Source: a virus. Taken from it: a DNA stretch of 19,248 nucleotides. Both the position numbers and the translations under genes were made by a program. The stretch is from UHGV virus genome UHGV-0135199. The stretch is one strand, 5' to 3'. Each line of letters starts with the position of its first letter. The stretch's first letter is position 1. Below, one piece after another: positions 2,010-19,248 of this stretch. The notes beneath the pieces are model-generated. The model was not told the DNA's origin. It worked only from the letters and a program-made list of their open reading frames with translations, and made no database searches.

Positions 2010-2744
2010 TTAATAAGCCAGAGATTTTTCTGGTATATCTTTTGAAGAGTACTGATTTGGGGTCACGCCAAAATATTTTCTGAAAACAGAAATAAAATAA
2101 GACACATTTTCATAACCACAAATTCCTGCGACCTCACAGATTGAATAGCGGTGGGTATTTAACAAATTTTCTGCTACAACCATTCTTTCTTCAAGAATAA
2201 TTTTACTAAATGACACCCCTTCATCTTTTAACTTTTTCTTTAACAGGCTTTCACTCAAATACAATCTTGAGGATATATCTCTTAGTCTCCAGCATGCCGC
2301 AATATCCGTATGGATAATAGCCTTAACCTTTCCCCCAACACCATTCAGACATCCGAATAAAAAAGTCTGAAGCATTTTATCTGATGATAAAACCGCAAGA
2401 CATGCAAATGATATTGTACTCTTGATTAATGTCGTATTTGCGCCACTATGATTCAGGCAAATGATTAACTGGCTAAGCAATGAGAAATCAAAAGCACTGA
2501 CCATTAAGTATGCGGGATACCCTCTTCTGACGGAGTGATGTGCAAGAGTATTTATTTTGAAGTAATCGTTAACAGTTTTCTCATCAAAGTCAGCGATAAT
2601 CACATTATCAGGGCATGCAGAGAAAACATTTCTTAAACTATAATCTACAAGAATAGCATCCCCCCTTTCAAGAAAGTGCTCTCTCTTGCCAAACCGGACA
2701 TCAAATGAGTTCAATACCAGGATGACAGAACATATGACCGGCAT
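2010..2744 (-). CDS. AraC/XylS-family transcriptional regulator (accessory gene between Q and holin)
   Basis: C-terminal HTH signature ([31 protein letters not shown]) typical of AraC family; ATG at 2744 preceded by AGGTGGG; region visibly AT-rich relative to neighbours. Confidence 0.8.
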
Positions 2745-2887
2745 ATTACCCACCTGATATTATGAATATTTAAATTAAGTATACGCAGGAAATCACACTT
2801 TACCAAATATGCAATAACAAAATGCTGCGGGAAAAGCCTCACTACCTGTTATCAAGCGGTAGACATACAAATCCCATCATTGAGAAA

Positions 2888-2947: not shown

Positions 2948-3700
2948 CTATCTCGTCACTTTTCTCAATTGCGCTTCTGCGTAAGCTTCTTCTTGCCAGC
3001 ACTTTGTAACAAGTTTATCAATAATGTCAGCATACCCCTTGTACCACTGATAATCCGTCAGGTCCGGTACCAGTTTCTGGACATGATGCCGCGCCAGTGT
3101 GGTTGGTAAACGACTAAACCGGTTTCCATTGCAACGCCCACAAATCTTATAAACAGGCGCGCCATGAAGCCGGGTCCTTTTTTCATCCAGGACAATACCT
3201 TTACCCTTACACCCTCTGCACGCTGTGCTGACTTCTCCCTTACCATGGCAATGCTGACATAGTTCCTTCCCCCACTCTTCCTTGATAACAGATTCCCCGC
3301 TTCTGGAGTGTTTCACCACTTCGCGCAATACATTATGAAATCCAGTACCAGCACAATGCTCACAGCGAGCCTTACTTGCCGCAGACCTGGAATAATCAGC
3401 AAAGGCAAAATTCACAAGGTAAGGGATAATCTGTAACCGGGTTTCTTCACTCAATTTATTCAATGTCGGGTTATCCAGTGCCATCGCGTAATTGAGCAGA
3501 CCTTCAATCGCAAACTGAGGATCCTGAACGCCAGCTTTTGCCAGGAATAAGGCAAACCCAAGCGGTGCTTTCGACTGCACCATCCCCTGCGCAGCCATCA
3601 CATCCGTAATTGATAAACCACCTGAGTCTGTCGCCGGTGCGTCATCGCTCAATTTTGGAGATTTTGGGGAGTAATATTTTGGTAATGCCTCAAGATTCAT
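2948..3700 (-). CDS. Q: Late-gene antiterminator Q (lambda Q family)
   Basis: MNLEALPKYYSPKSPKLSDD...TDVMAAQGM... aligns with lambda Q N-terminus and C-terminus (...KVTR); multiple CxxC zinc-binding motifs; GGAGAG SD upstream of ATG at 3700. Confidence 0.85.
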   Translation of the reverse strand: MNLEALPKYYSPKSPKLSDDAPATDSGGLSITDVMAAQGMVQSKAPLGFALFLAKAGVQDPQFAIEGLLNYAMALDNPTLNKLSEETRLQIIPYLVNFAFADYSRSAASKARCEHCAGTGFHNVLREVVKHSRSGESVIKEEWGKELCQHCHGKGEVSTACRGCKGKGIVLDEKRTRLHGAPVYKICGRCNGNRFSRLPTTLARHHVQKLVPDLTDYQWYKGYADIIDKLVTKCWQEEAYAEAQLRKVTR

Positions 3701-3780
3701 TCTCGCTCTCCATTTACACCAGCACGCCAATTGGCAGCAAAAAACAATAAAACGGCATCAACCGATCGTTATCTCTGGCT

Positions 3781-3918
3781 TCATACAATTGTCTCTGCCA
3801 GTGTTTTGGCGTAATTCTTCAGTATCCGGTAATCGGTCAAAACAGAACCGGGGAAACGATGTAAGCGCAGGCGCATCCAGCGGTGGCGAAGACGTTCTGC
3901 CACATAAAACTCAAACAT
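3781..3918 (-). CDS. ylcG: Small protein (45 aa), YlcG-like
   Basis: [45 protein letters not shown]; ATG overlaps the rusA stop (TGATG); not on the ORF track because below its size cutoff. Confidence 0.6.
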   Translation of the reverse strand: MFEFYVAERLRHRWMRLRLHRFPGSVLTDYRILKNYAKTLAETIV

Positions 3919-4280
3919 CATTCATTCCCCAGTTCGGTGATGGTCAGCTCCAGCTTCCCACCTTTGGTAACAGGCATCTTCACAACACGGTAATCAACGA
4001 CCTGAGCATCATCCAGCCAGAAACTTGCTTTAGTGAGTGCGTCAAAAGCGGCTTTTTGCAGATTATCCAGGTCACGGCGACGGCGATCCGGCATGTGGCA
4101 CTCAATACGGATTTTCACTGGCATAGCCAGGCCGATATCCAGCATTGCGTTTTTAATGATTCGGGTGACGTTATCGCGGTATGCCTGCCCCTCTGCGCTG
4201 ACGTGCGTGCGCCCGCGATTATGGCGGTAATAGCGATTATTGCTCGGAGGCCAGGGTAATATGATACTGTAGGTATTCAC
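3918..4280 (-). CDS. rusA: Holliday junction resolvase RusA
   Basis: [38 protein letters not shown]... matches RusA of DLP12-type prophages; starts with GTG overlapping the ybcO stop. Confidence 0.9.
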
Positions 4281-4567
4281 GCCTTAATAACCCCCTCTTT
4301 CAGCCAGATAACCTGTGTTCTCGCCATACCTTCCAGCGCGCATTCTTTTGCATATGCAGCATCGACAAAATGTGTGCGGCGGTCGATTTCGTCGTGGCAG
4401 GCAGAACATGCAATGGTGGCAATCAGGTCTGGCGGTTTGGTACCGGTGCCGCACAATCCAGCCAGCCGGATATGTGCCAGTACAGACGTTTCAGGGTTGC
4501 CATTACATACGCCAGGGATTCTTACCTGGCATTCCCGACCACGCGCTGCTTTTCTCAAATCAGCCAT
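4277..4567 (-). CDS. ybcO: YbcO-like nin-region protein (DUF1364, putative nuclease)
   Basis: [35 protein letters not shown]... matches DLP12 YbcO as recalled; AGGAGG SD upstream of ATG at 4567. Confidence 0.8.
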
Positions 4568-4730
4568 GATTCCTCCTTGCTGCCAGTCGCAACCATTTTT
4601 TATCAACCAGGCTGGCGGTATACCCGAGCAGTGTTGGTATTTCGGATGGCTTCAGCTCAGGTTTACGCTTACGACGATTTGGTACTTTGTAGATGTGTCC
4701 GTTCATGACACGAATAAGCGGTGTAGCCAT
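4560..4730 (-). CDS. ninE: NinE
   Basis: Hand-translated 56-aa [59 protein letters not shown]; start overlaps ybcN stop, stop overlaps ybcO start. Confidence 0.75.
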   Translation of the reverse strand: MATPLIRVMNGHIYKVPNRRKRKPELKPSEIPTLLGYTASLVDKKWLRLAARRNHG

Positions 4731-5185
4731 TACGCCTCCTGCTTGTCGCGCAGCAGCTGGAACTCGCAGCGCTGCGGAATAGTCAGGTGGCAGCCAATAT
4801 TCATCGCCCAGGCTTCAACCTTACACAGGAAGACATACATCTCTCCGGTATCAAGATCGGAGGTATGGCGTAACGACTGGATAGTAGTGATTTCGCCGGT
4901 TACGACATCAACCAGGTCCTTGGTTTCATAACCGAGGTATGTGTGTTTGAGAGCATCTTTTACCCATGCTGCGGTAGCGAACGATTTCCCCCTGCTGATG
5001 AGGTATTCACTGATTTCGCTGTACCACATATGGCTGAGTGCATTCTGGGAAAGACTGCGTTTCTCACGCCACGGTTTAAGCACCATGCGAAAGCATTTTC
5101 CGTCCTCCAGATAAGGCTGGATCTGCTTACCGATAGCGGTGAAGTTACCGCGATGTAATTTGATGCCGTCTTGTGGGAGGTTCAC
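4730..5185 (-). CDS. ybcN: NinB/YbcN-family protein
   Basis: [58 protein letters not shown]... matches DLP12 YbcN as recalled; GTG start at 5185 with GGAGGTGA SD. Confidence 0.8.
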
Positions 5186-5431
5186 GCTTCACCTCCGCAG
5201 AGGTCAAACGTTGGATGCAAAAAATCGCAGGTGCATTTCTGCATCTGTGACTGGTTGAAAGGTGTTCTGATTGTCGTTTGCACTTTGAGTCCCCTCAAAG
5301 CGCAGAAGTCACCGGAGTTTTTTAGGCTCCGATGACAATATTATGGCTTTTTTATTTCTAAATTCAAAACTTGAAAATATTAAGATTCGCTTTTAAATCA
5401 ACCCTAAACAACTGAAGATAACATCTGATAG

Positions 5432-6391
5432 TCAGCTAATTGCAAAGATATTAAAAATAACTTTAGGGAGTGCGAAAGATGAAATAAAAAGCACAACCAT
5501 AAAAATGGCATGCTTAATAAATGATGAGCTTGTAAAAAAAGCTCCTCCCTTGCTAATTCCTGCCATAAAAACAAAGATAAAGCTAATTAAGCACGACCAT
5601 ATCACTAACAAAACTGAGATTGACATGCTTAAAGACATATCGCGAGAAAATACGTTTACTGAAATAGAAATAAAGGTAAAGAAAGAAGCAAATAAAGCAA
5701 TGACACCCAGCATTGAGTTCCTTGCTGTAATTACTTCCGATTCAAAGCTTTTAACTTTCTCATGTATATCTTTTTCAGCATTTGATAATGTTGCATCAAA
5801 TTGCTCAATCTTTGCAGTTTGCTGAGATAATGAAGACATTACCTTACCTATTTTTCTTTTAGTATCATTAATATTCTTTTTGCTCTTATTCAACTCTTGC
5901 GAAAAATTGGTTAGTTGATCATTGATATTTTTCCAGAGGATGTTATCAATATCACTTTTTGTATATTTTTTTACATTCTCTTTATTAAAAGAAATTGTAG
6001 ATTCAGAATTATTATTAACAAAGTAATTAGATAAAATGGCATTAGAGACAGTATTATCCATCACCGGCACAGTTGCTTTTGAACTGTATTTTATAGCTTC
6101 ATGCGACATTTCTTTTTCATTAACAAAAAGAGAGGTTTTTATTAAGTTTTGTGGTGCCGCGTCTTTGATAGATATACTTTCCCGCTCTTTATTTGAAGCT
6201 GTTGCAGTTTTATTATCTATCTGCAAATTACTAATTTTTTGTACCCCTCCTGTATACGTAGATGTACTATTCGATACTTGTGAATTAGAATAAAGTGAAT
6301 GATGCGCAGTTCTTTTTGCCATGTCATCGTTGACTATAGCATTATTTTTTGCAGTTCTTTTTATATCCTTTTTATTATCATCCTTATTCAT
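5432..6391 (-). CDS. Hypothetical membrane protein (319 aa): N-terminal low-complexity Asn/Ser/Thr/Lys-rich region, central probable coiled coil, three C-terminal hydrophobic helices
   Basis: Hydrophobic stretches at about residues 228-248, 257-279 and 293-316 (hand counted); ATG at 6391 lies 14 bp after the upstream gene's stop with GAGGTGG SD in the gap; strongly AT-rich; no family recognised. Confidence 0.7.
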   Translation of the reverse strand: MNKDDNKKDIKRTAKNNAIVNDDMAKRTAHHSLYSNSQVSNSTSTYTGGVQKISNLQIDNKTATASNKERESISIKDAAPQNLIKTSLFVNEKEMSHEAIKYSSKATVPVMDNTVSNAILSNYFVNNNSESTISFNKENVKKYTKSDIDNILWKNINDQLTNFSQELNKSKKNINDTKRKIGKVMSSLSQQTAKIEQFDATLSNAEKDIHEKVKSFESEVITARNSMLGVIALFASFFTFISISVNVFSRDMSLSMSISVLLVIWSCLISFIFVFMAGISKGGAFFTSSSFIKHAIFMVVLFISSFALPKVIFNIFAIS

Positions 6392-6405
6392 TCAGCCACC
6401 TCACA

Positions 6406-7071
6406 TTACTGAATTTCATTCACTTTACTTAAAAAGGCTTTTTTTGTTTTTTCTGCGGTATATTTATCTTTAAATATAAAACTCTCGATTGTATTCACAT
6501 CGATCTGTTTCACTAGCATTGGTTGTTCTCTGACAATATCATATCCTGGCATAATCGACAAATGACAATTAAATATGGACTGCTCAAACTCGAATTTTTT
6601 ATTATACATTAAATTAATATCTTCAATTATTTCGCTATCATTCTGCATGTTGTTACTAAGATAGTTTTTAACAATCTCTTTGTTTGGGTTGTTGTTTAAT
6701 TCCGCCTTAACGGCCACCAAGCCTATTCTGATAATATCCTTATTGAGTTCTTTATGGATACCAACCACACTATCGAAAACTTCTTGAAACAAATGTAAGT
6801 CTACCTCTTGCTCAGAATCCATACGTTCAAAAAACAAATCACATCTCTGCAGTGAGCATTGAACTCTAAATTTATTATCTATAGAAAACAATTGGAGACG
6901 AGGAATCTCTGGTGGGGTATCCATAGGTAAAACGCCCAACATCATATTGTTTGTTAATTCAATACCTGCCTTCTTTTTAAAAGTTTGCCTAATAAAATAC
7001 GACATTCCATCGAAATCGACAGTCGTTGATGAATCGTAAAAAAATACCATTTGTAACTGTATGATTTTCAT
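6406..7071 (-). CDS. Hypothetical soluble protein (221 aa), first gene of the two-gene AT-rich cassette
   Basis: Long ORF in very AT-rich DNA, translationally coupled to the downstream membrane protein; no recognisable motif; start codon choice uncertain (weak SD at 7071). Confidence 0.65.
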   Translation of the reverse strand: MKIIQLQMVFFYDSSTTVDFDGMSYFIRQTFKKKAGIELTNNMMLGVLPMDTPPEIPRLQLFSIDNKFRVQCSLQRCDLFFERMDSEQEVDLHLFQEVFDSVVGIHKELNKDIIRIGLVAVKAELNNNPNKEIVKNYLSNNMQNDSEIIEDINLMYNKKFEFEQSIFNCHLSIMPGYDIVREQPMLVKQIDVNTIESFIFKDKYTAEKTKKAFLSKVNEIQ

Positions 7072-7223
7072 CCTATATTCCAGGTTTCAGCAATGTAAAT
7101 TTGGCGCATTATTCTAGCTTACAACAGCAACATTTTTGAAGGGCTTTGCTAAAACTTTTATTCTCAGTGGCATTAATTTCAACCAATAGGACCCGAACAG
7201 AAAAAAACATAAAAATCAATGCA

Positions 7224-7946
7224 TTATTTCGAAATCTTTTTATATAATGCTTTTCCCCCTTTCAGCCCAAACTTAGCTTTGATTTCTGCGATCTTCGCCA
7301 GAGCCTGTGCACGATTTAGAGGTCTACCGCCCATGACAGGAAGTTGTTTTACTGGTTCAGGGATCGCCTCACCACGGTTAATTCTCGCAGTCATATGGAC
7401 AAGCTCATCTGCGGCCTTACGGCGTAATTCCGCATCAGTAAGCGCATTGGCCCGCATGTTCTGATACAGGTTGGTAACCAGCCAGTAGTGCGCGTTTGAT
7501 TTCCACGGATAAGACTCCGCATCCGGATACAGGCCTCGCTTCCGGCAATACTCGTAAACCATATCAACCAGATCGCTGACGTTTGGCAGTCCGGCGATAA
7601 CGGATGCTTCTTCCCGGCACCATGCAACAAACTGCCCGGGTGATGGCAGAAATGGTCGATTCTGCCGACGGGCTACGCGCATTCCTGCGTTAACCTGTTC
7701 CATTGTGGTGATCCCGTTTTCCCGGAAAGCCAGAACCCACTGGCGGCGGATTTCGTTCAGTTCGTTCTGGTCACGGTTAGCCAGACTCGCCGGGAAAGTT
7801 GCCAGTAACTGGCTGAACACACCGTTGATGATCTGCGCTACCTGCTGTACCTGCGGCTTTTCGTCGTACTGTTCCGGCATGTTGTTGGCGATCCGACGCA
7901 TCTGCTCACGGTCAAAGTTAACCATCTGTGCGGCGATGTTTTTCAT
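7224..7946 (-). CDS. P: Replication protein P (DnaB helicase loader)
   Basis: MKNIAAQMVNFDREQMRRIANNMPEQYDEKPQVQQVAQIINGVF... near-identical to lambda P as recalled; ATGA overlap with O stop; C-terminal residues differ from lambda where the downstream insertion begins. Confidence 0.95.
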   Translation of the reverse strand: MKNIAAQMVNFDREQMRRIANNMPEQYDEKPQVQQVAQIINGVFSQLLATFPASLANRDQNELNEIRRQWVLAFRENGITTMEQVNAGMRVARRQNRPFLPSPGQFVAWCREEASVIAGLPNVSDLVDMVYEYCRKRGLYPDAESYPWKSNAHYWLVTNLYQNMRANALTDAELRRKAADELVHMTARINRGEAIPEPVKQLPVMGGRPLNRAQALAKIAEIKAKFGLKGGKALYKKISK

Positions 7947-8842
7947 AAATCCACCCCGTAAATCCAGTCAGTGTTTGTCAGGTCGAGTTTTGGTTTGCTG
8001 GCTATCATGCCTGCCTGTTGCTTGTTACGGTTGATTTCGAGCTGGGTCCACTTGTCGCGGAGTTTGGCCGGACTCAGCACGTTACCGGACCAGAAGTTGT
8101 CCTGGCATGCCCAGCGGAACAGTACACACATATCGCGGTGGTTACGTCCGTCACGTTCACGCATCAGGCGGATATCGTTAGCCCACCCAGCAAAATTCGG
8201 TTTTCTGGCTGATGGTGCGATAGTCTTCACCATGTCAAACATCCACTCTGCGGCGGTCAGGTCTTCTGCTGTCCCCCACTTGCTGCCGCTCTGAATTGCA
8301 GCATCCGGTTTAACCACAGAAAGATCGTTTTCTGGCTGGTCAGAGGATTCGCCAGAATTCTCGGACGAATAATCTTTTCTTTTTTCTTTTGTAATAGTGT
8401 CTTTTGTGTCCCCCTGTTTTGAGGGATAGCAATCCCTCAATTTGAGGGATGTTTTATCCCTCGTTTTAGGGGATTTTCCCTCGTTTTGAGGGATACACCA
8501 TTCTGAGATGTTTTTATTTGGTCCAAACATGCCGCCTTGCTGCTTGATAATATTCATTCTGACGAGTTCTAACTTGGCTTCATTGCACCGTTTGACAGGT
8601 AACTTTGTAATCTCGCTAAGTTGAGAATCGGTGATTCTGTCCATTGGTTTATTCCACCCATAGGTTTTACGCAGAATGGCAAGCAGCACTTTAAACTGTC
8701 GCTTGGTCAGATCTGCGCCTGAATAAGCCTCAAGCAGCATATTTGATAGTCTGGCGTAACCATCATCGAGATCTGCCACATTACGCTCCTGTCCGGCAAA
8801 GTTACCTCTGCCGAAGTTGAGTATTTTTGCTGTATTTGTCAT
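7943..8842 (-). CDS. O: Replication initiator O
   Basis: From ATG at 8842: MTNTAKILNFGRGNFAGQERNVADLDDGYARL... matches lambda O; AGGAG SD upstream; contains the ori iterons. Confidence 0.95.
   Translation of the reverse strand: MTNTAKILNFGRGNFAGQERNVADLDDGYARLSNMLLEAYSGADLTKRQFKVLLAILRKTYGWNKPMDRITDSQLSEITKLPVKRCNEAKLELVRMNIIKQQGGMFGPNKNISEWCIPQNEGKSPKTRDKTSLKLRDCYPSKQGDTKDTITKEKRKDYSSENSGESSDQPENDLSVVKPDAAIQSGSKWGTAEDLTAAEWMFDMVKTIAPSARKPNFAGWANDIRLMRERDGRNHRDMCVLFRWACQDNFWSGNVLSPAKLRDKWTQLEINRNKQQAGMIASKPKLDLTNTDWIYGVDL
8375..8494. repeat. Replication origin (ori-lambda type): four iterons plus adjacent AT-rich region inside O
   Basis: Four ~18-19 bp inverted-repeat iterons (tcccctgttttgagggat, atccctcaatttgagggat, atccctcgttttaggggat, ttccctcgttttgagggat) at 8410..8494 with ~23 bp periodicity, flanked by a T-rich tract at 8375..8400. 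Confidence 0.85.
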
Positions 8843-8851
8843 AATGACTCC

Positions 8852-8919
8852 TGTGGATTGATCCAGTCTTTCTACATCAGGCCTCAAAACTGTTGCAGCA
8901 GTCTTGAGGCTTTTCTTTT
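8852..8919 (+). ncRNA. oop: OOP-like antisense RNA overlapping the 3' end of cII
   Basis: Plus-strand promoter-like hexamers (TTGAGT 8817-8822, CATAAT 8840-8845) followed by a strong intrinsic terminator (gcctcaa...ttgaggc + TTTTCTTTT, 8881..8919), at the position of lambda OOP RNA; transcript start is estimated. Confidence 0.45.
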
Positions 8920-9529: not shown

Positions 9530-10180
9530 ATGAATACACAACTGATGGGTGAGCGTATTCGCGCTCGCAGAAAAGAACTTAAGATTAGGCAGGCTGCCCT
9601 TGGCAAGATGGTTGGCGTGTCTAATGTTGCTATTTCCCAATGGGAGCGTTCTGAAACTGAGCCCAATGGCGAAAACCTATTGGCTTTAGCCAAGGCTTTA
9701 CAGTGCTCCCCTGATTACTTGTTGAAAGGAGAAGATAGTCTTTCAAACATTGCCTATCACAGCAGGCATGATCCAAGAGGTTCGTATCCTCTAATTAGTT
9801 GGGTAAGCGCAGGATGTTGGATGGAAGCTGTAGAGCCATATCATAAGCGTGCAATAGATAACTGGTACGATACAACCGTAGATTGTTCAGAAGATTCGTT
9901 TTGGCTGGACGTAAAGGGTGATTCGATGACGGCTCCAGCCGGTCTTAGCATCCCGGAAGGGATGATAATACTAGTCGATCCTGAAGTAGAACCTCGTAAT
10001 GGGAAGCTGGTAGTGGCAAAGCTCGAAGGAGAAAACGAGGCAACTTTCAAGAAGTTAGTTATTGATGCTGGCAGAAGGTTTCTAAAACCACTTAACCCAC
10101 AATATCCGATGATTGAGATCAACGGGAACTGCAAAATCATCGGTGTAGTTGTCGATGCAAAAATAGCAAACCTTCCATAA
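9530..10180 (+). CDS. c2: Prophage repressor, P22 c2-type (HTH plus LexA-like S24 autocleavage domain)
   Basis: MNTQLMGERIRARRKELKIRQAALGKMVGVSNVAISQWERSE... through ...GNCKIIGVVVDAKIANLP matches P22 C2 as recalled. Confidence 0.95.
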   Translation: MNTQLMGERIRARRKELKIRQAALGKMVGVSNVAISQWERSETEPNGENLLALAKALQCSPDYLLKGEDSLSNIAYHSRHDPRGSYPLISWVSAGCWMEAVEPYHKRAIDNWYDTTVDCSEDSFWLDVKGDSMTAPAGLSIPEGMIILVDPEVEPRNGKLVVAKLEGENEATFKKLVIDAGRRFLKPLNPQYPMIEINGNCKIIGVVVDAKIANLP

Positions 10181-10200
10181 GGGGCATTCGCCCCTTTTTT
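10181..10200 (+). terminator. Intrinsic terminator after the repressor gene
   Basis: ggggc-attc-gcccc hairpin immediately followed by TTTTTTT. Confidence 0.7.
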
Positions 10201-10244
10201 TCTTTCCTTTAAAAATCAAAGCAAAACTTAAACTTCGCAATAAA

Positions 10245-10298
10245 ATTTAAGTTTTCTTCAAAAATACCCTTGACCAATAATTAAAGAAATCTTAAATT
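10245..10298. promoter_or_regulatory. Left operator region and pL promoter
   Basis: Operators ATTTAAGTTTTCTTCAAA (10245-10262) and ATTAAAGAAATCTTAAAT (10280-10297); pL -35 TTGACC (10270-10275), 17 bp spacer, -10 TAAATT (10293-10298) on the plus strand toward N. Confidence 0.65.
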
Positions 10299-10343
10299 TA
10301 AGTCATCAGCAGGACGCTGGTAGCCAAACGGAACAGATTGGCA

Positions 10344-10385
10344 GGCTCTTTAACATTGATGGGATTGTCCCGCCGAAATGCGGGA
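10344..10385 (+). promoter_or_regulatory. nutL site (boxA GGCTCTTTAACA + boxB hairpin)
   Basis: boxA-like motif at 10344-10355; hairpin tcccgc-cgaaat-gcggga at 10368-10385, identical to the nutR boxB. Confidence 0.7.
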
Positions 10386-10492
10386 ACCAAAGAGTAGTTG
10401 GCTTTGGGGTGACGTGAAGTGCAGCTGCACGACGGCAACCGGAAGATAAGCACCCGGCGCGTCACCGCCAAAGTCAATCATCGGAGGTCAAC

Positions 10493-10765
10493 ATGGCAGT
10501 AGTCATTACATATCTGGCTGACGATAACGCCAGAAATCGCCGCAGAGCACGCAGACAGGCTCAACGTGAGCAGGCAATGCAAGAACAGCGACTGGCGCGA
10601 AAAATTGCGCTAAAGCTCTCTGGTTGCGTCAGAGCAGACAAAGCAGCATCACTCGGAAGCCTTCGCTGCAAGAAGGCAGATGAATGCAGTGGAAGTATTT
10701 GCCTGCCAAACGTAGCCATTTACGCGGCAGGCTACCGGAAATCAAAACAACTGACGGCGAGATGA
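10493..10765 (+). CDS. N: N-like transcription antiterminator (P22 gene 24 type)
   Basis: Arginine-rich motif NARNRRRARRQAQREQA near the N-terminus; C-terminus ...LPNVAIYAAGYRKSKQLTAR matches P22 gp24 as recalled; GGAGG SD; located just downstream of pL/nutL. Confidence 0.8.
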   Translation: MAVVITYLADDNARNRRRARRQAQREQAMQEQRLARKIALKLSGCVRADKAASLGSLRCKKADECSGSICLPNVAIYAAGYRKSKQLTAR

Positions 10766-10781
10766 TAAATTCATTTGCTAA

Positions 10782-11363
10782 TTACTTGTTTTTGCCATGC
10801 TTATCCTGAGCGATAAGTTCATCCATAAGGCTGTCTGCCTTCCCGGCAAACCTAATGTAGCACTCATGTCTATAGCTTTCAGGGATAACGAAACGGTCGG
10901 TATCAGGATATCCAACAGCAGGAGGCCTTCGAACGAGGAGTCCTTTTTTGAGCAATGAAATTGATTCATGAGCTCCCTTTTCCGTTTGTAGCTGGTTATT
11001 AGCGGCTACAGCGAATGCCAAATACGCTCTTTCTCCAAGAGTTAATGAATCAAACAAATCTTGCACATATTTTTCTTCTTTAGATTTGCGCTTCTGAGCA
11101 GCGGATACCTCAATTCTTTCAGTCACAGCGTGATAAGCGGAATTAACAACGCCGTTAAGCACATAGCTAACGCAAAACAACAGGATGTAATACATCCAGT
11201 AATGAGGAAGGATTTCTGGATTATGCAGGTTTATCCATTCTTTTACGCTTACCGGCATAACAATAATCAATATGATCAGGATGATTAGCATATGAATCAA
11301 CTGTTTAAGTGTCATTCCTTGCAGGAAAAAATGCATTAGTTCCTGCCACCATGAGTTGTTCAT
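10782..11363 (-). CDS. sieB: Superinfection exclusion protein B
   Basis: MNNSWWQELMHFFLQGMTLKQLIHMLIILIILIIVMPVSVKEWINLHNPEILPHYWMYYILLFCVSYVL... matches lambda/P22 SieB as recalled; hydrophobic N-terminal segments. Confidence 0.85.
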   Translation of the reverse strand: MNNSWWQELMHFFLQGMTLKQLIHMLIILIILIIVMPVSVKEWINLHNPEILPHYWMYYILLFCVSYVLNGVVNSAYHAVTERIEVSAAQKRKSKEEKYVQDLFDSLTLGERAYLAFAVAANNQLQTEKGAHESISLLKKGLLVRRPPAVGYPDTDRFVIPESYRHECYIRFAGKADSLMDELIAQDKHGKNK

Positions 11364-16017: not shown

Positions 16018-16632
16018 ATGAAAAAATCAATACTAATTTTAGGGCTTACGTTAATTGTCTCATCTCAAATACCATCGGCAATGGCAAAAAATGAATCAAA
16101 ACTATGGGTTGTTGTTGATCGAACGGAAAGACATACCTGCCCTTCAAGTAAATGTGGAGTGGCTGGAAAACTATTTTTCAGGGAAGGCGTAGATTTTCTA
16201 GAAAAAAAAGGTGAATGGGTTCGTATAACTGAGCCATATTCAGCCTCATGTGTTGGAGGGGAAAGCGAATATATTAAAGAAGGTAATAAATCCTGCACAA
16301 GAAAAAATGGAATCGTTAATGGCAAGTTTTCAGAATGGGTTAAACTTAGTGATCTTAGCAGTGAAAGGCCATCAGATCCTGCTGAAAATGCGAGCGGAGA
16401 TGATACTTTAATCAAAGGATCTGATGACTACCGTATATACAAAAAAGAGTTTTCTTCGGCAGCTAGGAAGTTAATAAATGAAGGGGTCTGCACGGAAAGC
16501 GATTTTAAGGAAATCGGAGGGTGGATGGCATCAAGCAATAAGGGTGAAAACATCTATTTCACATATTGCGGAGGAATGACGTTGTCGAACAGAATATACC
16601 TAGATGTTAAAAGTGGAAAGACTTTTAGATAA
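16018..16632 (+). CDS. Hypothetical secreted protein (204 aa) with N-terminal signal peptide
   Basis: MKKSILILGLTLIVSSQIPSAMA followed by KNE (probable signal peptidase I site); eight Cys in the mature part; AAAAGGA SD; AT-rich; no family recognised. Confidence 0.7.
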   Translation: MKKSILILGLTLIVSSQIPSAMAKNESKLWVVVDRTERHTCPSSKCGVAGKLFFREGVDFLEKKGEWVRITEPYSASCVGGESEYIKEGNKSCTRKNGIVNGKFSEWVKLSDLSSERPSDPAENASGDDTLIKGSDDYRIYKKEFSSAARKLINEGVCTESDFKEIGGWMASSNKGENIYFTYCGGMTLSNRIYLDVKSGKTFR

Positions 16633-17259: not shown

Positions 17260-17688
17260 ATGAAATTAGACCAGCAATATCTAAAAGATCTACTTATCGC
17301 ATTCGAAAAAACTCGTGGCCCTGACACGATGCTTAGTGAACTAGAGGATAATGGCTTTAATAGATATGACCAAGATTTTATTTTCCATATGCGATTATTA
17401 TGTGACTACGAATTAATAGTCAGGGTTGATGGAAAACCTGGATTCGGTCATATAATGTCCAAAGCGTTAGGGGAAGGTGTTGGATATAGTTGGATCGAAG
17501 TACCACTGAGGTTGACAGCAAGAGGGCATGATTTTATTGCTGACTTACGTCAAAAGGATGTCTGGCAAGCTATAAAAACAAACTTTAAGGATGAGGGAAT
17601 TAGTACACTTATGAGTGTTTCAAAATCACTAGCAAAAGGCTTTGCAAGGAAAAAGATAAAAGATATTACAGGAATAGATATTGAATAA
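17260..17688 (+). CDS. Hypothetical protein (142 aa), AT-rich accessory gene upstream of orf55/xis
   Basis: ATG at 17260 preceded by GGAGG; MKLDQQYLKDLLIAFEKTRGPDTMLSELEDNGFNRYDQDFIFHMRLL...; no family confidently recognised. Confidence 0.7.
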   Translation: MKLDQQYLKDLLIAFEKTRGPDTMLSELEDNGFNRYDQDFIFHMRLLCDYELIVRVDGKPGFGHIMSKALGEGVGYSWIEVPLRLTARGHDFIADLRQKDVWQAIKTNFKDEGISTLMSVSKSLAKGFARKKIKDITGIDIE

Positions 17689-17978: not shown

Positions 17979-18197
17979 ATGTACTTGACACTTCAGGAGT
18001 GGAACGCACGCCAGCGACGCCCAAGAAGCCTTGAAACAGTTCGTCGATGGGTTCGCGAATGCAGGATATTCCCACCTCCGGTTAAGGATGGAAGAGAGTA
18101 TCTGTTCCACGAATCAGCGGTAAAGGTTGACTTAAATCGACCAGTAACAGGTAGCCTTTTGAAGAGGATCAGAAATGGGAAGAAGGCGAAGTCATGA
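17979..18197 (+). CDS. xis: Excisionase
   Basis: MYLTLQEWNARQRRPRSLETVRRWVRECRIFPPPVKDGREYLFHESAVKVDLNRPVTGSLLKRIRNGKKAKS is essentially lambda Xis. Confidence 0.95.
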   Translation: MYLTLQEWNARQRRPRSLETVRRWVRECRIFPPPVKDGREYLFHESAVKVDLNRPVTGSLLKRIRNGKKAKS

Positions 18198-19248
18198 GCG
18201 CCGGGATTTACCCCCTAACCTTTATATAAGAAACAATGGATATTACTGCTACAGGGACCCAAGGACGGGTAAAGAGTTTGGATTAGGCCGAGACAGGAGG
18301 ATAGCAATCACTGAAGCAATACAGGCCAATATTGAGTTACTCTCAGACAGCGGACGCAAATCACTGATAGACAGAATTAAAGGCGGTGACGCAATCACTC
18401 TTCATGTGTGGCTTGACCGATATGAAAGAATCCTCACCGAAAGGGGGATCAGGCCGAAAACTCTACTCGACTACGCCAGCAAAATCAGGGCAATCCGAAG
18501 AAAATTGCCGGACAAACCGCTCACTGACATATCAACGAAAGAAGTGGCAGCAATGCTAAACACCTACGTAGCAGAAGGTAAAGCAGCTTCCGCAAAATTA
18601 ATCAGGTCAACCCTTGTTGACGTTTTTCGTGAAGCAATAGCCGAGGGGCATGTGGCAACGAATCCGGTAACAGCAACCCGTACAGCAAAGTCAGAAGTAA
18701 GGCGCTCAAGGCTGACAGCTAATGAGTATGTCGAGATTTACCATGCAGCCGAACCTCTCCCTATCTGGCTAAGGCTGGCGATGGATTTGGCCGTCGTTAC
18801 AGGGCAGAGAGTCGGCGATTTGTGCAGAATGAAATGGTCAGACATAAACGACAACCATCTTCACATTGAACAGAGTAAAACAGGGGCTAAACTCGCCATT
18901 CCGCTAACGCTAACGATTGACGCGCTCAATATCTCATTGGCTGATACACTACAGAAATGCAGGGAGGCCAGCAGCAGTGAAACTATAATCGCATCAAAGC
19001 ATCACGATCCTCTTTCCCCGAAAACAGTATCAAAGTATTTTACAAAGGCGAGAAATGCATCTGGACTCTCATTTGATGGAAACCCGCCAACATTCCATGA
19101 ACTGCGTAGCCTGTCAGCGAGGCTATACCGGAACCAGATTGGCGATAAATTTGCTCAACGTCTTCTCGGGCATAAATCAGATTCAATGGCGGCGCGGTAT
19201 AGGGACAGCCGTGGACGGGAATGGGACAAAATTGAAATCGACAAATGA
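18175..19248 (+). CDS. int: Tyrosine integrase (lambda Int family)
   Basis: MGRRRSHERRDLPPNLYIRNNGYYCYRDPRTGKEFGLGRDRRIAITEAIQANIEL... through ...HELRSLSARLY...GHKSDSMAARYRDSRGREWDKIEIDK, including conserved catalytic-domain segments; overlaps xis by 23 bp as in lambda. Confidence 0.95.
   Translation: MGRRRSHERRDLPPNLYIRNNGYYCYRDPRTGKEFGLGRDRRIAITEAIQANIELLSDSGRKSLIDRIKGGDAITLHVWLDRYERILTERGIRPKTLLDYASKIRAIRRKLPDKPLTDISTKEVAAMLNTYVAEGKAASAKLIRSTLVDVFREAIAEGHVATNPVTATRTAKSEVRRSRLTANEYVEIYHAAEPLPIWLRLAMDLAVVTGQRVGDLCRMKWSDINDNHLHIEQSKTGAKLAIPLTLTIDALNISLADTLQKCREASSSETIIASKHHDPLSPKTVSKYFTKARNASGLSFDGNPPTFHELRSLSARLYRNQIGDKFAQRLLGHKSDSMAARYRDSRGREWDKIEIDK

Follow-up and report, generated by a model that had tools for sequence, protein, structure and literature searches.

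The lambdoid prophage represented by UHGV virus genome UHGV-0135199 carries, between P and a NinB-like gene, an AT-rich cassette of two genes, A and B, whose products are a soluble protein of 221 amino acids (aa) and a predicted inner-membrane protein of 319 aa. The window denotes the whole 19,248-nucleotide (nt) stretch of DNA that was analysed. Comparison of loci shows that A and B form a single mobile, co-inherited unit, with relatives in enterobacterial prophages and miniature plasmids, in a temperate phage of Gram-positive type and on metagenomic mobile elements. We tentatively read the cassette as a self-contained accessory (‘moron’) module of mobile elements, most likely for anti-phage exclusion or abortive infection, in which A would be a regulator and B a membrane-permeabilising effector. 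An earlier note, drawn from the letters of this DNA alone, had proposed a candidate undescribed phage-exclusion system at this place.

Position and composition of the A/B pair

Both open reading frames (ORFs) lie exactly where the earlier note had placed them, with the 14-bp gap and the Shine-Dalgarno sequence that it described; they are on the minus strand, which it had left unstated.

6406..7071, minus strand: gene A, 221 aa, ATG start; soluble protein, founding member of an unannotated superfamily of ~220-aa proteins
5432..6391, minus strand: gene B, 319 aa, ATG start; predicted inner-membrane protein
6396..6402, minus strand: GAGGTGG Shine-Dalgarno sequence of B, read directly; within the 14-nt A-B spacer, 4 nt 5′ of the B ATG
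7224..7946, minus strand: P, upstream flank of the pair (PF06992, E 9.5e-62)
4730..5185, minus strand: NinB-like gene, downstream flank of the pair

Because P and NinB flank the pair on the same strand, the pair is co-oriented with the pR operon, as had been claimed. The spacer with its Shine-Dalgarno sequence is present, and its shortness suggests the translational coupling that had been asserted outright. The G+C content (GC) of the pair is 31.4%, against 46.3% in the remaining window, and GC at third codon positions (GC3) is 0.34 in A and 0.26 in B compared with 0.56 in P and 0.61 in NinB, so composition is far from uniform with the neighbouring genes.

Borders and spread of the imported cassette

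The low-GC DNA has definable borders on both sides of the pair, with GC of ~0.30–0.35 inside the cassette and 0.50–0.55 outside it.

5369..7257, minus strand: whole imported cassette, ~1.9 kb, comprising the P 3′ tail, putative promoter region, A, B and a short 3′ tail
7224..7257, minus strand: recombination junction in P, an AT-rich substitute for the last ~11 P codons (...GKALYKKISK)
7111..7140, minus strand: promoter-like TTCAAA-18-TAGAAT upstream of A, from a consensus scan; promoter function inferred

On the right, similarity to the P gene of cassette-free prophages ends at window position 7258, 35 nt within the P 3′ end, and Megablast matches to P in 3564 genomes span only query positions 187–875, which correspond to window 7258–7946. 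On the left, DNA common to HK639, phi80, other lambdoid nin regions and >1000 E. coli prophages begins at ~5368. The full cassette was found in 21 of 5426 complete E. coli genomes (~98.5% identity), compared with 3564 of 5426 for P, and in a prophage with a 99.4% identical P the same position is occupied by ren. The cassette is also lost on its own: in E. coli AHB18 (L013, 3288–4244), IS1B cut A to ~82 codons and deleted B, while the prophage early region is otherwise retained. Together these observations support the view that the cassette is separately acquired cargo replacing ren, as its AT-richness had led the earlier note to suggest.

The location of the pair raises the alternative that it works for the phage itself, in lytic growth or takeover of the host, through membrane remodelling, lysis timing or ren-like protection, with expression from pR alongside O and P. 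The pair does form part of the early-right operon, ahead of the nin region and Q, and takes the position of ren; moreover, since the scanner found no intrinsic terminator immediately 3′ of B, pR transcripts must read through it. Against such a role, the pair is rare among near-identical prophages, its loss through IS1 leaves the prophage in place, and the same pair is found outside any phage replication context, on small plasmids, in an islet next to icd and on a mobilizable element (see below). Neither the cassette DNA nor A or B matched any of 50,697 sequenced phage records. We regard a role in the phage's own cycle as the least probable of the explanations considered here.

The site upstream of A comes from a promoter consensus scan that performed at chance level overall (12 sites found vs 9.5 expected). 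An alignment of upstream DNA places a CTTyAA-N17/18-TAnAAT block 35–45 nt before the A start in five of seven loci (the window, Klebsiella, Scandinavium, Leclercia and Citrobacter), representing five different genomic contexts, and this block coincides with the scanned site at 7140–7111. We infer that it may be the cassette's own promoter. The cassette and the related pairs are AT-rich in every host examined.

As a separate observation, the ~150-nt non-coding stretch upstream of ninB (window 5215–5368) that marks the cassette's left recombination boundary is common to >1200 E. coli prophages as well as HK639, HK225 and phi80, and is annotated as IR4 in phi80. Within this stretch lies a GC-rich hairpin of 10 bp, which reads GCGCTTTGAG-GGGA-CTCAAAGTGC on the minus strand.

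Co-inheritance and selection

In order to follow the pair beyond the window, seven loci were fetched via B homologues or cassette DNA, from E. coli L9, Klebsiella, Leclercia, Citrobacter, Kosakonia, Erwinia and Scandinavium. A 220–221-aa A homologue lies directly upstream of B in all seven. A scan of IMG/VR added 13 prophage loci, nine of them with the pair directly after P, and B came next in each of the 11 that extend past A; B therefore directly follows A in 18 of 18 readable close-family loci (7 fetched and 11 from IMG/VR). Across the family the two genes are separated by 0–20 nt or overlap. The soluble and membrane proteins that had been noticed side by side in the window are thus a conserved two-gene unit.

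The two proteins have also diverged in step, with A distances tracking those of the B helix (Mantel r = 0.93) and of the B membrane domain (r = 0.85; p ≤ 0.0005). Synonymous sites are saturated between homologues (proportion of synonymous differences, pS, 0.7–0.85), and the proportion of nonsynonymous differences (pN) in A is 0.20–0.45. As judged from these substitution patterns and those of B given below, A and B are real genes under purifying selection.

Settings of the pair and of its distant relatives

Pairs of this kind are found in two slots of lambdoid prophages, P-nin and nin-Q, at the end of a prophage next to the integrase, and in a chromosomal islet next to icd. More distant A-family genes were read on seven plasmids of 2.6–6.8 kb, ColE1-type or mobilizable, from Shigella, Klebsiella, E. 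coli, Enterobacter and Rahnella, and at further loci on other mobile elements. At every distant locus read (the seven plasmids, L018, L022, L023, L025 and L027), a gene for a small membrane protein partner lies immediately downstream on the same strand. By hydropathy scan, these partners have a polar N-terminal stretch, mostly rich in Ser/Thr/Asn, often a helical or coiled-coil segment, and one to three hydrophobic segments that are predicted to be transmembrane (TM). The plasmid partners, of 121–163 aa, begin with a head rich in Ser/Thr/Asn and have a charged helix and either one long or two hydrophobic segments. Homology of B to these small partners was considered and rejected (profile-profile probability in hhalign, 1.4%). 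Because no homology is detectable, we describe them as two partner classes with a common architecture.

Two of the plasmid records hold further items of interest. On the Enterobacter plasmid (L017, ~665–1030), the gene for the 121-aa membrane partner is present in the DNA and omitted from the record annotation. Klebsiella plasmid pYTF44-1-6k (L012, 6.8 kb) has, at 3689–5035, three more genes, clustered and unrelated to the pair, for hypothetical soluble proteins of 74, 214 and 158 aa; the cluster adjoins a duplicated Rop/helix-turn-helix replication region.

Other distant pairs lie among genes of varied kinds. In L018–L021 (2941–6091), genes for a C5-methyltransferase and an Eco47II-type endonuclease directly precede the pair; two of these four loci have the restriction-modification (R-M) genes and the pair on a Mob_Pre/TnpV mobilizable element, and in L020 the partner gene has decayed to 51 codons. 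One further pair is on a resolvase/ANT-bearing element, and another takes the slot between lysin and integrase in a 40-kb temperate phage of Gram-positive type. A Yersinia lambdoid prophage encodes a pair between DUF968 and Q whose partner has the B membrane domain almost unchanged, and whose A protein is a remote relative only (profile E 4e-22). Finally, a metagenomic contig of 38% GC (L022, 4188–8483) carries an A-family gene and a partner of the B type (BLASTP E 2e-5 against B) between grpE/DUF3467 and dnaK, and the GC of that pair is 0.29 in a contig of 0.38.

Arrangements of this kind would also be expected of an addiction module, in which B is a membrane toxin, A its protein antitoxin, and the pair serves mainly to retain its plasmid or prophage through post-segregational killing and has no function dedicated to phage. 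The order of a soluble protein first and a membrane protein second, with overlapping or nearly overlapping stop and start, is that of many toxin-antitoxin operons; an A/B-type pair is nearly the sole cargo of plasmids of 2.6–4 kb, a tiny-plasmid habitat that fits addiction equally well; and the divergence of A and B is strictly parallel, with partners always staying together. Killing of plasmid-free segregants would, though, bring little benefit to high-copy ColE1-type plasmids, and the preference for prophage moron slots together with the R-M neighbour points to conflict with phages. No known toxin or antitoxin domain was matched in A or B in Pfam or NCBIfam, and A lacks a DNA-binding domain with which it could regulate its own operon. 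On balance, we consider a primarily addictive role rather unlikely. Since many toxin-antitoxin systems also act against phage, it overlaps with the anti-phage role that we prefer; were it correct, the pair would still represent a new family of membrane toxins countered by a protein.

Anatomy and conservation of the B protein

Hydropathy, an AlphaFold model built on a 16-sequence alignment, and the heptad pattern agree on the layout anticipated for B, with a low-complexity N-terminus, a coiled coil and three C-terminal helices.

5972..6391, minus strand: B residues 1–140, hypervariable Ser/Asn/Thr/Lys-rich region, predicted to be disordered (pLDDT <50)
5714..5959, minus strand: B residues 145–226, long heptad-repeat helix predicted to run into TM1 (model and heptad pattern)
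5435..5713, minus strand: B residues 227–319, nearly invariant three-helix membrane domain (hydropathy and conservation)

Hydrophobic segments are found at residues ~227–247, 254–280 and 290–318. In the model, residues 1–140 are disordered (pLDDT <50), an unbroken helix extends from 145 to 248, and two further helices span 254–281 and 289–315. Within residues 146–226, the a and d positions of the heptads are 67% hydrophobic, compared with 31% overall.

The three regions differ sharply in conservation. Residues 1–140 are unalignable, with zero conserved columns in 16 homologues, a mean pairwise distance of 0.73 and a pN of 0.43–0.58. The membrane domain, by contrast, has ~55 invariant columns in the same 16 homologues and a pN of 0.07–0.23, with the consensus ARNS..IALFASFFTFISISVN.FSRDMSL...W.C..SFIF.FMAGI.KGG..FTS..F.KH. 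Its mean distance is 0.28, against 0.59 for A, which makes it the best-conserved part of the system. By positive-inside reasoning applied to the predicted topology, ~225 residues of B would be cytoplasmic. B looks like an effector, in which an oligomerising helix would lead into polar, extremely conserved membrane helices; a membrane domain that is both rich in polar residues and the best-conserved part fits an effector rather than a simple anchor.

The same conservation would fit contact with a conserved host membrane component, and hence an envelope-based exclusion that is not abortive, whereby B in the inner membrane blocks phage-genome injection or plasmid transfer without cell death and A is an accessory or chaperone. 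Inner-membrane exclusion proteins are common in prophages, and the window itself encodes SieB; the module is also carried on mobilizable plasmids, where shutting out competitors would pay. Known injection blockers act alone, however, which leaves an invariable soluble partner with conserved polar residues unexplained, and the bulk of B (the ~225 residues above) is predicted to be cytoplasmic rather than periplasmic. For these reasons we consider such a mechanism improbable.

The A protein, its superfamily and predicted fold

As had been proposed, the A product appears soluble: it has no hydrophobic segment, and its highest 19-residue Kyte-Doolittle mean is 0.69. Its structural model is confident (pLDDT 90.2, pTM 0.87) and has a predicted duplicated beta-alpha-beta(4)-alpha topology. 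The fold class suggested by this model is the duplicated alpha/beta class of the AdoMetDC prozyme and TBP, an assignment that names a fold and not a function, with 6–9% identity and a TM-score of 0.41 over about half of A. A fold search of BFVD with A returned a single unnamed 202-aa viral protein. The possibility that A is an AdoMetDC-type enzyme was rejected, given the TM-score of 0.41, best matches that are non-catalytic paralogues, and the position of Ser63 outside the columns conserved in ≥90% of the superfamily.

A profile search with 13 A sequences recovered 928 cluster representatives at E ≤ 0.001, 280 of them at E ≤ 1e-10; among the top 150 listed, lengths are nearly always 200–260 aa. 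R76, D191 and N193 are invariant in the superfamily, and Q7, F11, P49, P53, P57, D78, R115, G117 and N168 nearly so. The family can be defined by a length of ~215–240 aa and the motifs Q..(A)FF, P...P.E.P, R.D, R.G, N and D.N, all of which A has. Alignments of diverse members hold no conserved stretch of 7–10 columns, and a degenerate DNA pattern for GIxIQRDINN had no match in viral contigs. Look-ups of A-family clusters gave no informative names. An apparent N-terminal fusion in a 326-aa member (P0075) was set aside, as the extension looks like a mis-called start. A looks like a cytoplasmic regulator or sensor of B.

Relationship to known families and defence systems

Neither A nor B matched Pfam, NCBIfam or PADLOC (PADLOC-DB v2, 5027 models) above threshold, or any PDB sequence; nine partner proteins likewise had no match above threshold in Pfam or PADLOC. 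The pair therefore corresponds to no defence system catalogued in PADLOC. The statement in the earlier note that neither protein belongs to a recognised family holds for these databases and needs qualifying in two respects: PHROGs includes both A and B, as families of unknown function, and A belongs to the large superfamily described above. Neither A nor B has a homologue among replication or nin proteins, a possibility that had been raised. A match of B to PDC-M26A (E 7e-4, 16 bits) falls in the low-complexity and coiled-coil part and was treated as an artefact, as were sub-threshold matches to zf-C2H2_aberr, MobQ (16 bits vs a cutoff of 200), spectrin/DUF1664 and the heptad repeats of paramyxovirus F0, all of the coiled-coil or low-complexity kind.

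The likeness to RexA/RexB of lambda that had been pointed out is one of layout: both are two-gene modules of lambdoid prophages in which a soluble protein comes first and a polytopic inner-membrane protein second. In the textbook model of RexAB, a cytoplasmic sensor opens a membrane channel and aborts infection, and T4 rII is among the phages that the system shuts out through depolarisation of the membrane. Every RexAB membership feature that was tested failed. A matched no RexA model in Pfam or PADLOC; B had no RexB match and, unlike the four-helix RexB, ends in three helices that follow a predicted cytoplasmic part of 225 residues; and whereas RexAB is in the immunity region and co-transcribed with cI, the A/B pair lies between P and ninB. 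In the window, cI is followed by N at 9530–10765 on the plus strand, and rexA/rexB are not between them; the pair could consequently fill the RexAB role in this prophage.

Other systems share parts of the layout. Kiwi (KwaA/KwaB) and similar systems combine one membrane and one soluble protein, but these families are unrelated to A/B, gene order differs, and PADLOC gave no match. B matched no holin model in Pfam, and the pair is in the early region, ~3.4 kb from the lysis genes. An architectural parallel to B is a prophage-encoded, AbiZ-like DUF6161 protein, DS-34B, in which a cytoplasmic coiled coil is followed by TM helices and which protects against phage (DefensePredictor; Science 2026, PMC13092281). 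No DUF6161 match was found in B or in its Yersinia and metagenomic homologues, and DS-34, as described in that source, pairs the AbiZ-like protein with a CI-like repressor rather than an A-family protein. The likeness to Rex-type exclusion is thus one of layout, and searches matched neither protein to a model for Rex, Kiwi, AbiZ, holins or toxin-antitoxin systems.

Weighing a role in phage exclusion

An anti-phage role for the module is suggested by its mobile habitat, AT-richness in every host, promoter-like block, sporadic spread, dispensability and R-M neighbour, and by the agreement of an independent classifier. In Table S10 of the DefensePredictor study (PMC13092281), WP_224204944.1 is listed in cluster WP_021526100.1 as a ‘Predicted novel defense gene’. 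This protein (NZ_CP083585.1, 3764650–3765315) is the 221-aa A of one of the 21 cassette-bearing E. coli genomes. The table gives its cluster a mean log-odds of 4.99 and a minimum of 4.23, with a cutoff of 4, and reports no HHblits or Foldseek match to known defence proteins; the overall validation rate given for the method is 45% (PMC13092281). The entry in that table is a score, with no description of a partner gene, family, structure or distribution. Beyond DefensePredictor, no literature trace of A was found, and RefSeq accessions of the A and B proteins had no match in searchable full texts. The suggestion of an undescribed exclusion system therefore gains a prediction for A, although its likeness to RexAB is confined to layout.

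Several points weigh against this interpretation. A log-odds near 5 is at the low end of DefensePredictor predictions; because the classifier uses genomic context, its score is not fully independent of the argument from the moron slot; and the accession of the A cluster is absent from the other supplementary tables searched, among them those of cloned and tested units (S6 and S7; 94 cloned units; PMC13092281). No experimental phenotype for the pair is on record. A and B contain no known domain of the sensor, nuclease, NTPase or effector kinds, and 50 A-family members had no match above threshold in Pfam, PADLOC or NCBIfam. The case for the promoter consists of a consensus match and its conservation, and no terminator closes the unit immediately 3′ of B. 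The grpE-dnaK heat-shock operon around the metagenomic pair is a non-defence context, unlike all others. As A and B were not found in the 50,697 phage genomes, characterised phages lend no support.

If the module does act by exclusion or abortive infection, a mechanism can be proposed from its predicted anatomy. In the lysogen, the cassette promoter would drive transcription of A and B; in lytic growth, pR would do so. B would enter the inner membrane, keeping its N-terminus on the cytoplasmic side, and oligomerise via the ~80-residue heptad helix, so that its Ser/Thr/Asn-rich TM helices could form a pore or ion channel. Cytoplasmic A, with its duplicated alpha/beta fold and its conserved polar cluster of R76, D78, D191 and N193, would bind the cytoplasmic part of B and, upon an infection cue, either cease to hold it closed or open it. 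Opening of B would then collapse the membrane potential and halt the infecting phage.

A soluble partner with a membrane effector on a prophage is a known design; no description exists for either protein family, for the A fold in such a role, or for a superfamily of this breadth. A bolder proposal, about which we are more doubtful, is that the pair represents a widespread undescribed two-gene immune family of at least 900 clusters, in which an A protein of TBP/AdoMetDC-like fold gates a membrane pore assembled by a coiled coil, parallel to RexAB and unrelated to it. Should the pair protect, it would be a defence family invisible to homology-based tools (PADLOC, Pfam and NCBIfam), with a sensor fold and a membrane effector both new to immunity, and it would account for the cargo of many cryptic 3-kb enterobacterial plasmids as well as of the lambdoid ren slot. 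The contrast between a nearly frozen membrane domain and a hypervariable B head offers a handle on phage recognition or on escape from phage inhibitors. With a size of 1.9 kb, two genes and what appears to be its own promoter, the cassette should lend itself to quick dissection.

Other features of the prophage

The rest of the window is that of a lambdoid prophage. The plus strand encodes the integrase (18175–19248), exo/bet/gam, N (10493–10765) and cI (9530–10180). On the minus strand are cII, O (7943–8887), P, NinB, YbcO, RusA, Q (2948–3730), an AraC-type regulator and the lysis genes. The SieB superinfection-exclusion homologue (PF14163, E 2.5e-22; window 10782–11363, minus strand) lies just past N on the opposite strand. 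The AraC-family regulator (247 aa, PF12833/PF00165; window 2010–2753, minus strand) is encoded in a second low-GC patch (0.34–0.39), just downstream of Q and upstream of the lysis genes, and resembles a separate moron at the place where Stx phages keep toxin genes. Between exo and int, two low-GC ORFs (~0.38–0.39) with strong positive GC skew, at 16018–16632 and 17260–17688 on the plus strand, may be further accessory cargo; one encodes a 204-aa protein without a Pfam match and the other a DUF2513 protein.

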